DNA from: a phage
DNA: 64,000 nt
Sequence record: PZ386976.1
Reading direction: 5' to 3' (one strand)
Positions 11,259-24,417 of this stretch are shown here, in pieces. The stretch's first letter is position 1; each line of letters begins with the position of its first letter. The notes under the pieces were generated by a model. That model worked only from the letters and a program-made list of their open reading frames with translations, ran no database searches and had not been told where the DNA came from. The position numbers were made by a program, and so were the translations under genes.

Positions 11259-19274
<8,016 letters not shown>

Positions 19275-19276
19275 TA

Positions 19277-20443
19277 ATGGCAGTAGGTGAAATTCAAATT
19301 AGTGCCTTGCCTCAAGCAGCCTTACCAATTGACCTTAGTGATATCTTCCATCTTAAGCAGGGTATTGAGGATAAGAGATGTACTCTTGAGCAATTACTTG
19401 CTCCACACTCAAGCCTAAGAAATAACCCCCACGGTGTTACTAAAACACAAATTGGTTTAGATAACGTTATCAATGCTCTTCAGTTAGTTGCTGCAAATAA
19501 TTTATCAGACATTACTAATGTTGATGAGGCAAGAGCAAATCTACAGATTATGTCTTCAGAAGAGGTTAATAGCCTTGTCCAACAGCATATTAATGATAAG
19601 AGTAATCCACACAATACAACTAAAGCACAGGTTGGTTTAAGTAATGTTCAGAACTGGACAACATCCAACCTTTATAATGAAGATGCAGATAAGTACGCTA
19701 CAGCAAGAGCAGTAAATAACTTGTACAAGGCTGTTCAGGCTTCTTATCCAGTAGGTACTATCCATCTCTCTATGAATCCTGCAAACCCTTCTACATATTT
19801 AATTTGTGGGGGTACTTGGGAGTTAGTTTCAAGAGGAAGAGCACTTGTAGGTTATGATAGTGCTTCTAGGCCAGTTGGTAGTAACTTTGGCTCAAGTAGT
19901 GTTAGCTTATCTAGTAACAATCTACCGTCACATAGCCATTCAATCTACCTAACTGGTGGTGGACATACTCATGGTGCTGCTATTACTATCGATGGATTTG
20001 ATTACGGTAATAAGAGCACAAACAGCTTCGATTATGGAACAAAGACCACTAATAGTACTGGTGCTCACACCCACTCAGTGAGTGGTTCAACAAATACCAC
20101 AGGTAATCACACACACACTGTAGGTGGTCGTTACGGAGGTGACTCTATTGGTGGTAAACAACGTGTTCAGGTCTCAGGGACTGCTCAGGTTTCCAGTGTA
20201 GCTGGTGACCACTCACACACTATTAGCGGTTCAACAAATACCACAGGTAATCACCAACACACTGTTGCAATTGGTGCTCACACGCATACTGTTGCAATTG
20301 GTGCTCATACCCATAAAGGCACAGTAACTTTGCAGTCATCTGAGCATACTCACTCAGGTACTACAGGCACTACAGGTGCTGGTCAAGCATTTAGCGTTGA
20401 ACAACCATCCTTTGTGGTTTATGTATGGCAAAGAACCGCTTAA
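19277..20443 (+). CDS. tail fibre protein with His-box C-terminal domain
   Basis: 388 aa; C-terminus with repeated HxH boxes (SHSHS, HTHG, AHTHSV, NHTHTV, DHSHT, AHTHTV) nearly identical to C-terminus of next ORF. Confidence 0.6.
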   Translation: MAVGEIQISALPQAALPIDLSDIFHLKQGIEDKRCTLEQLLAPHSSLRNNPHGVTKTQIGLDNVINALQLVAANNLSDITNVDEARANLQIMSSEEVNSLVQQHINDKSNPHNTTKAQVGLSNVQNWTTSNLYNEDADKYATARAVNNLYKAVQASYPVGTIHLSMNPANPSTYLICGGTWELVSRGRALVGYDSASRPVGSNFGSSSVSLSSNNLPSHSHSIYLTGGGHTHGAAITIDGFDYGNKSTNSFDYGTKTTNSTGAHTHSVSGSTNTTGNHTHTVGGRYGGDSIGGKQRVQVSGTAQVSSVAGDHSHTISGSTNTTGNHQHTVAIGAHTHTVAIGAHTHKGTVTLQSSEHTHSGTTGTTGAGQAFSVEQPSFVVYVWQRTA

Positions 20444-20493
20444 AAATTCTTTTACAGGGGGCTGTACAGCCCTCTTTCTAGAGGACAAAAATA

Positions 20494-22836
20494 ATGGCAG
20501 ATTACAAGTTGAGTGAATTAAACTCAATCGATACAATCCGTTCAGATGACCTTCTTCATGTCAGGGTTAAAAAGAGACCTGAAATGCTGGGTGATGAAGA
20601 CCGTCGAATGACCTATCAAGATTTCTTAGCATCTTTTAAACTTGAAAGATTTGTTCAGATTGCTGGTAGCACTATGACGGGTGACTTAGGGATTGTTAAG
20701 TTACTTTATGGTGGTAAGGCAGTATTTGACCCAACAGGTTCTTCTGAAATTACTATTGGGGATGTTTTAAAGACTTTTAAACTTAATGCAAATGGTCTTA
20801 AACTAACTATTGCAGATGCTTCAAGGTCAGCAACTGTTTACCATACTCTGAATAAACCAAGTCCTAATGAACTTGGGATGAGAACTAATGAAGAAAATGA
20901 TGCAAGGTATGCAAGACTTGCTTTCACAAATAACTTCAGCATTAGACAAGCAATCATCACTGATGGTGAGCAGTTAACTCTTAAGAAAGCAACAAATGAA
21001 GGCGCTTCATTTATTCAAGGTAGGGATGCTAATAACCAGCAAACTTGGTATGTTGGGCAGGGAAATGCAAACAATAATAGTGTTTATCTGTACAATCATG
21101 CCACTGGTTCAATGTTAACCATTGATGCAACAGCATCATTTAACAAGACACTAAGAATCACTGGACAAGTTCAACCTTCAGATTTCTCTAACTTAGATGC
21201 CAGATACTTCACTCAGACAGTTGCTAATCAGAAATTTGCACAGTTAGCTGGGGATAACACTTTTACAGGTGCTAATACTTTCACTAACCTTGTTGTTAAG
21301 AAGAACGCTAATGCTATTACTTTGCAGAATACTGATGCAAGTACACCACTTTACATTCTCGGTAAGAAGTCTGATGGAACAAATAAATGGTATGTTGGTA
21401 CAGATTCTGAAGATACACGTCTAAACATTTATAACTACCTTACAGGTTCACAGGTTTCACTAGGTACAACTATTGGTATCAATAAAACCGTGCAAGTCAC
21501 TGGACAAGTTCAACCATCTGATTGGTCTAACATTGACTCTAGGTATATTCCGGCAGCAACATTAAGTACAATTGCAAGAACTAATGTTATCAATACATTT
21601 TCTGTACGACAAGTTATCAACTCTGATGGTGAAGCTCTTGCGTTAAAAGCAAAAACTGCAACGACATTGTTCATTAGAGGGTTAGCTGCTGATGGGACAG
21701 CTAAGTGGTATGTTGGTAATGGTGATGATGATAACAATAACAACTTAAGGCTGTTTAACTACAAAACAGGTAAAGGGCTTACCATCGGTTCAGCATTTGA
21801 AATGAATGCAACTTTAGCAATCACTGGACAGGTTCAACCTTCAGATTTCTCTAACTTAGATTCCAGATATTATACGCAATCTGCCGCAAACTCTAGGTAT
21901 ATGCTTTCTTCCTCTTCTGGTACTGGTACAGAGGTAGGTGATAGTGATGGTGTTGCTTGGAATGCTAAAACTGGTCTGTATAATGTTACAGGGAAATCTG
22001 GTGGTTCAACGCAACTGGTCTACCATATGTATCAGGGTAGTAGCTCTACACCATCTGCTCAATTAAAATTTAACTATAGAAATGGTGGTTTTTGGTATAG
22101 GTCAGCAAGAGATGGGTATGGATTTGAGAATACTTGGGCTAAAATCTATACAGACCAAGATAAGCCAACCCCTTCAGATATTGGTGCATACACTAAAGCA
22201 GAAACTGACCGGAAGATTGCGCAGGCAATTAGTGACTCTACAGACCTGAATAAAATCTATCCAGTGGGTATTGTAACGTGGTTTAACAGTAATGTTGACC
22301 CTAATACTGCACTTCCTGGATTAACTTGGACGTACCTGAACAATGGTGTTGGTAGAACTATCAGAATTGCAGCAGCAAACGGTTCAGATGTTGCTACAAC
22401 TGGCGGTTCAGATTCTGTAACGTTATCTGTTGGTGACTTACCTTCACATACCCACAGCTTCTCAGCTACAACGTCAAGCTTTGACTATGGTACGAAGACA
22501 TCTAACAGTACTGGTGCTCATACACACTCGGTTAGTGGTTCTACTAACAACACTGGTGCTCATACACACACTGTAGGTGGTCGTTACGGTGGTGACTCCA
22601 TCGGTGATAAACAGCGTGTTCAGGTATCAGGAACAAACCAAGTGTCAAGCTCTGCTGGCGCTCACGCTCACACTGTATCAGGTACTGCTGCATCCGCTGG
22701 CGCTCACTCTCACACAGTAGGTATCGGTGCTCATACCCACACAGTATCTGGTAACACTGGTGGTACAGGTTCTGGTTCAGCATTTAGTGTTACTAACCAG
22801 TTCTACAAGTTAATGGCTTGGGTGAGAACTGCTTAA
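20494..22836 (+). CDS. long tail fibre protein with three internal repeats and His-box C-terminal domain
   Basis: 780 aa; three ~100 aa repeats each ending ITGQVQPSD(F/W)SN(L/I)D(A/S)RY; C-terminal HxH boxes shared with 19277..20443. Confidence 0.65.
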   Translation: MADYKLSELNSIDTIRSDDLLHVRVKKRPEMLGDEDRRMTYQDFLASFKLERFVQIAGSTMTGDLGIVKLLYGGKAVFDPTGSSEITIGDVLKTFKLNANGLKLTIADASRSATVYHTLNKPSPNELGMRTNEENDARYARLAFTNNFSIRQAIITDGEQLTLKKATNEGASFIQGRDANNQQTWYVGQGNANNNSVYLYNHATGSMLTIDATASFNKTLRITGQVQPSDFSNLDARYFTQTVANQKFAQLAGDNTFTGANTFTNLVVKKNANAITLQNTDASTPLYILGKKSDGTNKWYVGTDSEDTRLNIYNYLTGSQVSLGTTIGINKTVQVTGQVQPSDWSNIDSRYIPAATLSTIARTNVINTFSVRQVINSDGEALALKAKTATTLFIRGLAADGTAKWYVGNGDDDNNNNLRLFNYKTGKGLTIGSAFEMNATLAITGQVQPSDFSNLDSRYYTQSAANSRYMLSSSSGTGTEVGDSDGVAWNAKTGLYNVTGKSGGSTQLVYHMYQGSSSTPSAQLKFNYRNGGFWYRSARDGYGFENTWAKIYTDQDKPTPSDIGAYTKAETDRKIAQAISDSTDLNKIYPVGIVTWFNSNVDPNTALPGLTWTYLNNGVGRTIRIAAANGSDVATTGGSDSVTLSVGDLPSHTHSFSATTSSFDYGTKTSNSTGAHTHSVSGSTNNTGAHTHTVGGRYGGDSIGDKQRVQVSGTNQVSSSAGAHAHTVSGTAASAGAHSHTVGIGAHTHTVSGNTGGTGSGSAFSVTNQFYKLMAWVRTA

Positions 22837-22843
22837 TCCATTG

Positions 22844-22872
22844 TTGACTGATTGTTAAGATGGTGTTAATAT
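22844..22872 (+). promoter_or_regulatory. sigma70-like promoter (TTGACT-17-TAATAT)
   Basis: TTGACT at 22844-22849, 17 nt spacer, TAATAT at 22867-22872; inverted repeat agatggtg/caccatct flanks -10 and 5'UTR. Confidence 0.4.
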
Positions 22873-22915
22873 TCTTTATGGGTATTCTCACCATCTTGGC
22901 TGATGAGGTGATTAA

Positions 22916-23113
22916 ATGCCTACAATCCTAGCAATTCTTCTAAAAAATCTAGGTAGCTTCTTCTGGAAACTCATTTTATCCCTTCTAAGTGAATACATGA
23001 TTGAGAAAGTGTTCTTTAGGCTTGCAAGATACCTTGCGAGTAAAACAGACACACCTATTGATGATGAGTTCGTAGATAACTTAGAAAAAGCTTTTAAGGG
23101 GGAGAATAAATGA
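22916..23113 (+). CDS. small hypothetical protein, hydrophobic N-terminus
   Basis: 65 aa; hydrophobic N-terminal stretch. Confidence 0.3.
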   Translation: MPTILAILLKNLGSFFWKLILSLLSEYMIEKVFFRLARYLASKTDTPIDDEFVDNLEKAFKGENK

Positions 23114-23481
23114 AGTGGCTAGAGGAAGCTTTTAAAAATAATATTGGTGCAATTGTAGTTGGTATTTTTAGTGTTATTGGGATGTATACCACCATGCAAG
23201 TCTCGGATGGTAAGCAAGAAGTGTCTATCACAACAAAGTTACAGCAGTTAGATAATTATTCCAAAAGTAATTATTCAGCTATTCGTGATTTACAGTCTGA
23301 TATGAGGCTGCTTCAGCTAGGGATGGAGAACCAGAAAGTCCAGTTAGAGAATGTTAAGGGAGAGAACGCAAAACTTACTAAGACTCTTGATAAATTCTCT
23401 GATAGTGTGAACAATCTGGCTCAATCAGTATCAGCCCTCCAAGCTATTACTGAAAAGAACACAAAGAATACTGAAAAGTAA
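23110..23481 (+). CDS. hypothetical membrane-anchored coiled-coil protein
   Basis: 123 aa; N-terminal TM-like IGAIVVGIFSVIGMY then Q/L/N-rich helical region. Confidence 0.3.
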   Translation: MKWLEEAFKNNIGAIVVGIFSVIGMYTTMQVSDGKQEVSITTKLQQLDNYSKSNYSAIRDLQSDMRLLQLGMENQKVQLENVKGENAKLTKTLDKFSDSVNNLAQSVSALQAITEKNTKNTEK

Positions 23482-23486
23482 GATTT

Positions 23487-23516
23487 AAGGCTCCTTTTTA
23501 CGGGAGCCTTTTTTGT
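23487..23516 (+). terminator. rho-independent terminator at convergent gene junction
   Basis: aaggctcc ...loop... gggagcctt followed by TTTTTTG; lies between plus-strand block and minus-strand td. Confidence 0.6.
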
Positions 23517-23517
23517 T

Positions 23518-24417
23518 TTATTTACCTACTGACAAAGGTGCTTCAATCTTTCCTGCATGTTGATAGTTGCTAATACCACCAATAAAGTCACTTGCAGTAA
23601 GATGTTTCAGGTCACTTAAAGTATTTAGTTGTAGACCAATCTCAAAAGTTGGTGCATGAAACTCTTCATTGTTCATCAGTTCGTAAACCTGCTTCATGTG
23701 GTTCTGATAAATCTGAGTATCTCCAAAGACACCTATCAAATATCGTGGAGTGTATCCAGTCATCTTACAAAGAACTTCCAGAATAAAACCATAAGATGCA
23801 ATATTAAACGGAAGTCCTAAAAAGGTGTCTACTGAACGCTGATACCATTGTAAGTCAACTTCACCCTCATTAGTGATATAAATCTGAAACAGAACATGAC
23901 AAGGTGCTAAAGCCATTGAGTTTGCTGCAATATCTGCTGCATTCCAAGCATTAACAAGCATGTAACGGTCTGTGATATCACCCTTCATCTTCGTTACTAA
24001 GGTCTCTAACTGGTCTACAACACAACCATTATGACCTTCAAAGTTTCTCCACTGAACCCCATAGATTCTCCCACCTGCATCATCTAACCAATCTTGTTCA
24101 GAAGAGTAATTAGAGCTTAACCAGCGTTTAAAATCATCTGACCAGATAGTCCATCGTTCCCCATCATTTTCACCCCAAGTGCGATAACGGAGTTCACCTA
24201 GCTTATTCTCACCGTTCAGGAACCACAGAGCTTCCCCAATAACTTGCCGTGTAAACACCTGTTTAGATGTTAAGAGTGGGAAACCAGTTCGCATATCAAA
24301 ACGAAACTGAGGTGGAGCAAATGCAGAGATAACATCTCCAGTTCGTGTAGTACGCAGTTCACCAACTGATAAAACATGGTTCAGGATATTTTTGTAACTT
24401 GAATCTGCTTGTGACAT
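23518..24417 (-). CDS. td: thymidylate synthase
   Basis: ThyA motifs: LWFLNGEN, ALAPCHVLFQ, YQRSVDTFLGLPFNIASYG. Confidence 0.9.
   Translation of the reverse strand: MSQADSSYKNILNHVLSVGELRTTRTGDVISAFAPPQFRFDMRTGFPLLTSKQVFTRQVIGEALWFLNGENKLGELRYRTWGENDGERWTIWSDDFKRWLSSNYSSEQDWLDDAGGRIYGVQWRNFEGHNGCVVDQLETLVTKMKGDITDRYMLVNAWNAADIAANSMALAPCHVLFQIYITNEGEVDLQWYQRSVDTFLGLPFNIASYGFILEVLCKMTGYTPRYLIGVFGDTQIYQNHMKQVYELMNNEEFHAPTFEIGLQLNTLSDLKHLTASDFIGGISNYQHAGKIEAPLSVGK

Follow-up and report, generated by a model that had tools for sequence, protein, structure and literature searches.

Shared gp37-type tips and cassette mosaicism in the two tail fibres of a Felix O1-like phage

The short and long tail fibre genes

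An analysis was conducted of two adjacent tail fibre genes in a 64,000 nt stretch of phage DNA (sequence record PZ386976.1). The whole of this stretch is referred to here as the window, and all coordinates are window positions. An earlier note, made from the sequence alone, had proposed that both fibre proteins carry a shared His-rich C-terminal module, that the longer one contains internal repeats, and that domain duplication and exchange have taken place. Both open reading frames (ORFs) are as claimed there, and both are on the + strand (Table 1). On the evidence of their sequences, the genes are the short tail fibre (STF) and long tail fibre (LTF) genes of a Felixounavirus, a Felix O1-like Salmonella myophage. 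This assignment follows from the 97.9% amino acid identity of the STF with Felix O1 gp76, the 96% identity of the LTF with that of Salmonella phage Seyj1-1, a gene order that is the same as Felix O1 ORF73-80, and the matches to the locus as a whole. A total of 235 phage records matched the 3.56 kb fibre region, all of them Felix O1-like, with 119 named for Escherichia and 82 for Salmonella; the top match is Seyj1-1 (93.7%). The orthologues of the STF are Felix O1 gp76 and Bas63 gp26, and those of the LTF are Felix O1 gp77 and Bas63 gp27. Against named relatives the pair shows 93-98% amino acid identity, although the LTF is a different mosaic from Felix O1 gp77, with which it shares only 74%. 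Over its first 25 kb, the window shares about 96% identity with Salmonella phages Si3, PMBT20, and GEC_vB_B1. One further record, GU169904.1, is named 'Staphylococcus phage SA1' and has an 89% match to the fibre locus; it probably includes enterobacterial phage sequence.

Table 1. Features of the STF and LTF genes, in window positions.
Feature	Position	Strand	Remarks
STF gene	19277..20443	+	ORF, 388 aa; PHROG 2097 'tail fiber', E=7.6e-139
STF N-terminal part	19277..19696	+	conserved across the genus; median 90-98% nt identity, 23 relatives
NPHxxTKxQxGLxNV motif, two copies in the STF N-terminal part	19424-19468, 19604-19648	+	
STF collar domain (T4 gp10/gp12/gp37 D10-like)	19745..19960	+	begins YPVG
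STF ascending needle	19931..20116	+	4 HxH (aa 219, 230, 264, 278); FDYG(N/T)K repeats
STF head (tip subdomain)	20117..20197	+	TVGGRYGGDSIGGKQRVQVSGTAQVSS; type A; equivalent of T4 gp37 residues 932-959
STF descending needle and C-terminal strand	20198..20440	+	ends ...AFSVEQPSFVVYVWQRTA; 5 HxH (aa 312, 326, 335, 344, 357)
STF-LTF spacer with GC-rich hairpin	20444..20493	+	50 nt; RNA fold -17.3 kcal/mol, z=-3.8
LTF gene	20494..22836	+	ORF, 780 aa; PHROG 4277, full-length, 1386 bits
LTF conserved N-terminal part (baseplate-binding region and first domain)	20494..20898	+	88-98% median identity across relatives
LTF variable cassette, repeat 1	20897-21136	+	
LTF repeat domain 1	20899..21222	+	aa 136-243; HMM iE=6e-45; ends in linker ITGQVQPSDFSNLDARY
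LTF repeat domain 2	21226..21561	+	aa 245-356; HMM iE=3e-43; ends in linker VTGQVQPSDWSNIDSRY
LTF variable cassette, repeat 2	21257-21496	+	
LTF variable cassette, repeat 3	21557-21856	+	
LTF repeat domain 3	21568..21885	+	aa 359-464; HMM iE=6e-41; ends in linker ITGQVQPSDFSNLDSRY
LTF variable cassette, fifth domain	21857-22216	+	
LTF fifth domain (like phage Mu tail fibre S)	21913..22242	+	Pfam gp37_C PF12604, E=6.8e-28
LTF collar domain	22258..22455	+	begins YPVG, aa 589; conserved across the genus, 89-93% median identity
LTF ascending needle	22447..22569	+	3 HxH (aa 652, 676, 690)
LTF variable cassette, head	22457-22756	+	
LTF head	22570..22650	+	TVGGRYGGDSIGDKQRVQVSGTNQVSS; type A, same as STF head
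LTF descending needle and C-terminal strand	22651..22833	+	ends ...AFSVTNQFYKLMAWVRTA; 3 HxH (aa 724, 738, 747)

The architecture of these fibres has already been described for the genus. The Felix O1 genome paper (2010) reported that the C-termini of gp76 and gp77 both resemble T4 gp37 (PMC3185647). In the cryo-EM structure of Bas63, which is of the same genus, the STF is 430 angstroms and the LTF 630 angstroms long, and a gp37-like tip consisting of collar, HxH needle, and head is present on both fibres (PMC12609058). Five beta-helix repeat domains were described in the Bas63 LTF, the tips and repeat domains were found to be strongly variable genus-wide, and the two fibres dock on different baseplate wedge proteins (PMC12609058). 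Sf14, from a sister genus, has the same two-fibre layout with T7-gp17-like and Mu-like domains, and chaperone genes are absent (PMC11821841). The window has the gene order of Felix O1 and Bas63, the same two proteins, gp37-like HxH tips on both, and repeat domains in the LTF. The interpretation offered in the earlier note is therefore right but not new, having been published for the genus (PMC3185647, PMC12609058). What goes beyond the published work is useful detail: the same selected head on both fibres, sporadic conversion between STF and LTF, the occurrence of the head across phage families, and the cassette map.

A baseplate-binding role is predicted for the N-terminal region of the STF from the Bas63 work (PMC12609058). 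The STF collar matches Pfam Gp10_C over aa 154-270 (E=4e-17, 63.9 bits with a cut-off of 27), the T4 gp10 structures 5HX2 and 2FKK (both approximately 4e-7), and 2XGF, the T4 gp37 tip. The LTF collar aligns with that of the STF, and its match to Gp10_C is weak (E=0.0079), at 17.6 bits being under the cut-off.

Three tandem repeats of about 100 aa had been claimed for the LTF. A hidden Markov model (HMM) built from the unit found exactly three, in tandem and of 106-112 aa each. With filters off, the HMM detected no further diverged copies in the LTF N-terminus, the fifth domain, or the STF, and neither Smith-Waterman nor the HMM found similarity to the unit in the N-terminal part of the LTF. 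Against each other the protein units have Smith-Waterman scores of 174-251, compared with about 32 +/- 6 for shuffles (z=22-38). At the DNA level the copies are at 21156-21215, 21495-21554, and 21819-21878, within a few bases of the positions in the earlier note. They are spaced 339 and 324 nt apart, and the identity among them is 70-90%. Pfam PF20744 (gp37_trimer) matches the LTF in three stretches with 198.8 bits against a cut-off of 21.7 (E=1.2e-59). These results support the identification of the three repeats as paralogous, tandemly duplicated gp37_trimer domains, which is the domain duplication that had been suggested.

Within repeat domain 1, LTF aa 158-225 has a weak match to the T7 gp17 structure 4A0T (E=6.6e-4), and the authors of the Bas63 study compare the domains with the T4 gp34 rod (PMC12609058). 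The window LTF differs from both in having three tandem copies with GQVQPSDxSNxDxRY linkers, each copy being an exchangeable allele. Whereas those authors count five beta-helix domains in the Bas63 LTF, in the window three copies of one unit are recognisable by sequence. The fifth domain is like that of the phage Mu tail fibre S/S', with LTF aa 475-576 matching residues 328-427 of the Mu fibre PDB 8JU3 (E=1.9e-25). In the window, however, the domain has an internal position ahead of a gp37-type tip, and there is no Mu-type chaperone gene after the fibre genes.

Homology and selection of the shared tip

The C-termini of the STF and LTF are 54% identical over 185 aa (E=8e-49, BLASTP with composition-adjusted statistics). 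Their Smith-Waterman score is 500, against 74 +/- 11 in 1000 composition-preserving shuffles (z=38), and the shared His-rich module is thus present as proposed. The similarity is greatest in an 86-aa tip cassette in which 69 residues are identical, including 54 of the first 60; in DNA, 20024-20221 and 22477-22674 are 79% identical over 198 nt. This near-identical stretch is the ascending needle and the 27-aa head. The earlier statement that both proteins end near-identically holds for these two parts but not for the protein ends, since the descending needles (5 versus 3 HxH) and the last ~20 residues differ.

The crystallised tip of T4 gp37 (2XGF) is matched by STF aa 146-359 (E=8e-26) and by LTF aa 645-759 (E=7.6e-15), and it is this sequence match that settles the homology of both tips with it. 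The T4 gp37 collar consists of residues 811-881 and 1010-1026, and the stem of 882-931 and 960-1009, with seven iron ions on HxH motifs and a receptor-contacting tip subdomain at 932-959 (PMC6957217). The order of collar, HxH needle, head, and return strand is the same in the window, and FDYGTK is shared. There are 9 HxH motifs in the STF (4+5) and 6 in the LTF (3+3), to either side of the head, where Bas63 has 7 and 6. All seven of the T4 iron-binding HxH motifs are aligned with HxH in the STF, and six of the seven in the LTF. Pfam PF03335 (Phage_fiber), with a cut-off of 20, scores 37.7 bits in the LTF and 20.6 bits in the STF. The head segment, TVGGRYGGDSIGGKQRVQVSGTxQVSS, aligns onto the T4 tip subdomain, although its sequence differs from that of the T4 gp37 head (TVGGRYGGDSIGGK... 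against YIEAWNGTGVGGNK...). The likeness to the metal-coordinating His boxes of long tail fibre tips, to which attention had been drawn, is borne out by the homology with 2XGF, the aligned HxH, and the Bas63 cryo-EM structure (PMC12609058). By analogy, each fibre would have a homotrimer fold and its HxH motifs would be expected to bind metal.

The tip region is compositionally biased, and in a BLAST search with 69 aa as the query, low-complexity filtering hid part of it and only residues 24-69 were aligned. It might be argued from this that the C-terminal similarity is a low-complexity resemblance of two Gly/Ser/Thr/His-rich sequences that are not homologous. There is practically no chance that this is so, as it is refuted by the composition-adjusted BLASTP E-value and by the shuffles of the same composition (z=34-38). 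In addition, other Felixounavirus heads lie between the same HxH flanks and yet cannot be aligned with this head, so the match does not come from composition alone. The self-comparison that had been put forward as a check likewise gave significant repeats and a C-terminal similarity far above that of shuffles; because the repeats and the shared module are both well above shuffled sequence, neither an absence of repeats nor a background level of similarity was found. A different objection is that the near identity of the tips in the window reflects recent gene conversion instead of long-term selection. Conversion is clear in relatives, where exact tracts between STF and LTF are found in Seyj1-1 (141 nt), in UAB_Phi87 (113 nt, with the shared derived changes R>H and V>A), and, at 51-69 nt, in Felix O1 (51 nt), OPT-SAL01, SapYZU01, FGS030, and BPS15Q2. 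In the window, on the other hand, the 60 shared codons have a pS of 0.62, which is near saturation, and a pN of 0.068 (dS ~1.3, omega ~0.05). The longest exact match between the genes is 26 nt, there is no long identical tract between 20024-20221 and 22477-22674, and, of 13 genomes, the window has the lowest STF/LTF core identity (77%). Recent conversion is rejected for the window on the pS, the short exact tract, and the low core identity, and is very improbable. With near-saturated synonymous sites, so short a longest match, and the lowest core identity, the protein identity has been kept by purifying selection, and the two tip copies in the window are old paralogues held in this way.

Cassettes and head types among the relatives

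The fibre genes were compared with those of related phages, as had been recommended, using 24 IMG/VR loci and 10 GenBank phage records. In the LTF, conserved segments alternate with variable cassettes (Table 1), and the best-matching relative changes from one cassette to the next. For repeat 1 the best relatives are L015 and L012, for repeat 2 they are L014 and L022, and for repeat 3 it is L023. A five-way alignment contains at least two alleles for each repeat domain. In Mushroom (L031) and BPS15Q2 (L034), which have fibres of 839-840 aa, an unrelated domain of ~170 aa replaces the Mu-S-like fifth domain. In every case the swap is flanked by two conserved linkers, GQVQPSDxSNxDxRY and KPTPSDIGAYTKAETD...YPVGI. 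Together the comparisons support a reassortment in which heads, repeat domains, and the fifth domain behave as cassettes bounded by conserved linkers.

Some of the relatives have LTF genes of differing form. That of FGS030 (L036) is 2520 nt, a length as in Mushroom and BPS15Q2, which are the two covered by the alignment. In L012 (an 86,231 bp contig) and L014 (84,419 bp, Salmonella phage Si3) the LTF gene is split into two ORFs, the cause being a frameshift or else an error in sequencing.

Among the relatives, collar and HxH needle are conserved, but each head belongs to one of six discrete types in the STF or one of eight in the LTF. STF and LTF heads reassort, giving the combinations B+G, B+T4-like, C+I, C+G, and A+K. 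The same head type is present on both fibres in only 5 out of 24 genomes (23 IMG/VR loci and the window), and in these it is always type A. The window is one of the five, and Felix O1 likewise has type A on both fibres. The relatives with the same head type on both fibres are mostly Salmonella phages. A type-A head is found in 86 phage records, 80 named for Salmonella and 1 for Escherichia, with approximately two thirds having it on both fibres. The type-A head is found almost only in Salmonella phages; the complete locus occurs just as commonly in Escherichia phages. The representative genome of Salmonella enterica itself has other heads, not type A. Domain exchange relevant to host range had been suggested for these genes, and the discrete alternative forms that reassort, together with a type-A head that is mostly in Salmonella phages, agree with this.

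The same head types extend to other phage families. A single residue differs between the LTF head of the window and the head of the Peduovirus STYP1, and variants of the type-A head are present in SEN4 (Peduoviridae) and in Tequatrovirus GRNsp7, in each case inside the phage's own scaffold. Felixounavirus SP2 and STYP1 have identical tips, on the LTF in the case of SP2. In L006 the needle-and-head cassette of the LTF is identical to T4 gp37 at 72 of 77 positions, and the L003 LTF has the same T4-like head type, which suggests sequence exchange between Felix O1-like and T-even phages. The tips of lambda Stf and of P2-like phages (Peduoviridae) belong to the same HxH needle family (Phage_fiber), and it is within this group that STYP1 and SEN4 share the head type. 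Their scaffolds, however, terminate in NTVKNIAFNYIVRLA and have a tail-fibre assembly (Tfa) gene after them; neither is seen at the fibre genes of the window.

A separate set of approximately 15 assemblies of unrelated bacteria has one and the same fibre-tip match, with 52% identity, on contigs that are either 48.4 kb or tiny and of low coverage. The set includes L054, L055, L058, L060-L063, L065, and L066, and its hosts include Pseudomonas, Shewanella, Neobacillus, Kitasatospora, Bradyrhizobium, and Pseudoxanthomonas. The tip from L054, which is the one that was translated, resembles the C-terminus of phage lambda Stf. The set looks like contamination with lambda control DNA.

Proposed host recognition by the two fibres, and the surrounding sequence

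It is very probable that the window encodes the STF and LTF of a Felixounavirus with gp37-type tips, duplicated shaft domains, and the same head on both fibres, in which cassette exchange re-targets host range. Each fibre would be a homotrimer with its N-terminus on the baseplate and its C-terminus forming a receptor-binding tip of the T4 gp37 type. Within the tip, the collar would be followed by a six-stranded needle, and at its distal end the chain would reverse direction in the 27-residue head. The HxH motifs of the three chains would face the axis of the needle and hold a column of metal ions, iron in the case of T4, that stiffens it, and the head would, to judge from T4 and Bas63, contact the receptor. 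The LTF would owe its greater length to the three duplicated gp37_trimer domains and then the Mu-S-like domain. Purifying selection has kept the two heads near-identical in protein despite the divergence of their DNA. Because the heads are kept nearly identical by selection, the simplest reading is that both fibres recognise the same feature of the lipopolysaccharide (LPS) core, binding one ligand that is presumably the LPS core needed by Felix O1. In this respect the phage would differ from T4, in which the binding domains of the long and short fibres are not the same.

The conserved DNA coding for the linkers and for the HxH and FDYGTK motifs could provide the homology for recombination, so that heads, repeat domains, and fifth domain may be exchanged as cassettes. 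The partners in such exchange could be related phages, the STF and LTF genes within a single genome (gene conversion), and P2-like and T4-like phages, and the host range would be re-targeted. This corresponds to the 'His box' recombination model that was reportedly put forward for T-even fibres by Tetart, Desplats and Krisch (1998). In the collection of papers that was searched, none uses the term 'His box'.

Several points weigh against this interpretation. Some Salmonella Felixounaviruses have type A on one fibre only, for example L018 and those records in which the head matched just once in the genome. The type-A head is also found, together with a tip of the P2/STYP1 type, in two prophage-like contigs from Escherichia, L038 (E. 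coli SCPM-O-B-8794) and L039 (E. albertii NBRC 107761). The head thus also occurs outside Salmonella hosts, and a strict one-to-one link between type A and Salmonella is ruled out by these two contigs. A permutation test of STF/LTF conversion within versus between genomes gave p=0.005, but it ignores the relatedness of the genomes. An AF2 monomer model of the STF tip from a two-sequence alignment had a pLDDT of 33 and a pTM of 0.13, too low to be of use; an interdigitated needle is in any case impossible for a monomer. The BASEL paper (PMC8594841) identifies the receptor of Felix O1 no further than LPS and describes the role of short fibres as unexplored. Finally, there is no gp38/Tfa-type chaperone gene after the fibre genes, the rest of the window not having been scanned for chaperones. 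In T4 the tip ends a fibre of four proteins and has the gp38 chaperone, whereas the tips in the window are on two single-protein fibres. The C-terminal ends are also different, being ...WQRTA and ...WVRTA here and ...NYIVRLA in T4, lambda, and P2-type tips. Based on the lack of a downstream gp38/Tfa-like gene and on these ends, folding of the tips may differ from that in T4.

It could also be that the two fibres have different jobs in spite of their shared head. The LTF would then make a reversible first contact and the STF, like T4 gp12, would be the irreversible trigger of the baseplate, with the variable LTF repeats or the Mu-S-like domain as a second, lateral binding site. The fibres of different length on different wedge proteins in Bas63 (PMC12609058) would fit such a division, as would repeat and fifth domains that are as variable as the heads and a fifth domain that is homologous to a Mu fibre domain. 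For Sf14, receptor contacts nearer to the base of the fibre than to the tip have been proposed (PMC11821841). The variability of the repeats can, however, be explained otherwise, for example by relaxed constraint or by escape from defence systems, as the authors of the Bas63 study suggest (PMC12609058), and on balance a division of labour of this kind is somewhat less likely than not.

Returning to a single ligand for both fibres, the type-A head may be a portable adhesin module for one LPS-core structure of Salmonella and of some Escherichia. In Felixounaviruses that infect Salmonella it would be kept on both fibres by purifying selection and occasional conversion, and it would move among Ounavirinae, Peduoviridae, and Straboviridae by recombination within its HxH-coding flanks. 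This proposal is tentative and falls a little short of an even chance. If it is true, a swap of 27 residues would retarget phages of three families, and phages with one head type on both fibres would be following a different adsorption strategy from T4, which uses a two-receptor scheme. Tail fibre tips decide which bacteria can be attacked, and Felix O1-like phages are used in Salmonella diagnostics and biocontrol. The practical value of the cassette map, with its head, three repeat domains, fifth domain, and conserved junctions, is that it marks sites at which fibres of this genus could be re-engineered. Being common to both fibres and to P2-like and T4-like phages, the head is the obvious first candidate for a host-range swap.

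The fibre genes are located after baseplate genes and before holin-like and thyA genes, as is the orthologous pair in Felixounavirus. On the 5' side of the STF are a Baseplate_J gene (16643-18112), a DUF2612-like baseplate gene (18115-18972), and an ORF of 100 aa. On the 3' side of the LTF are two small membrane-protein ORFs (22916-23113 and 23110-23481) and, beyond these and on the opposite strand, thymidylate synthase and DHFR. The PHROG families matched by the two small proteins have no assigned function; in several relatives the second protein carries a holin annotation. No tRNA genes were found by ARAGORN in the entire window. For Felix O1, 22 tRNAs have been reported (PMC3185647); the cluster is presumably outside the window.

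A scan of 18800-23700 for promoters and terminators gave counts that were not above those of shuffles. In the hairpin of the spacer between the fibre genes (Table 1), the ribosome-binding site of the LTF gene, GAGGA, is base-paired within the outer stem. Across 23 relatives this hairpin retains its GC stem but has a variable loop, and in most there is a T-run 3' of it. In sequence it resembles an intrinsic terminator or attenuator. A strong terminator-like hairpin is also present at 23487-23510, where transcription of the + and - strands converges.

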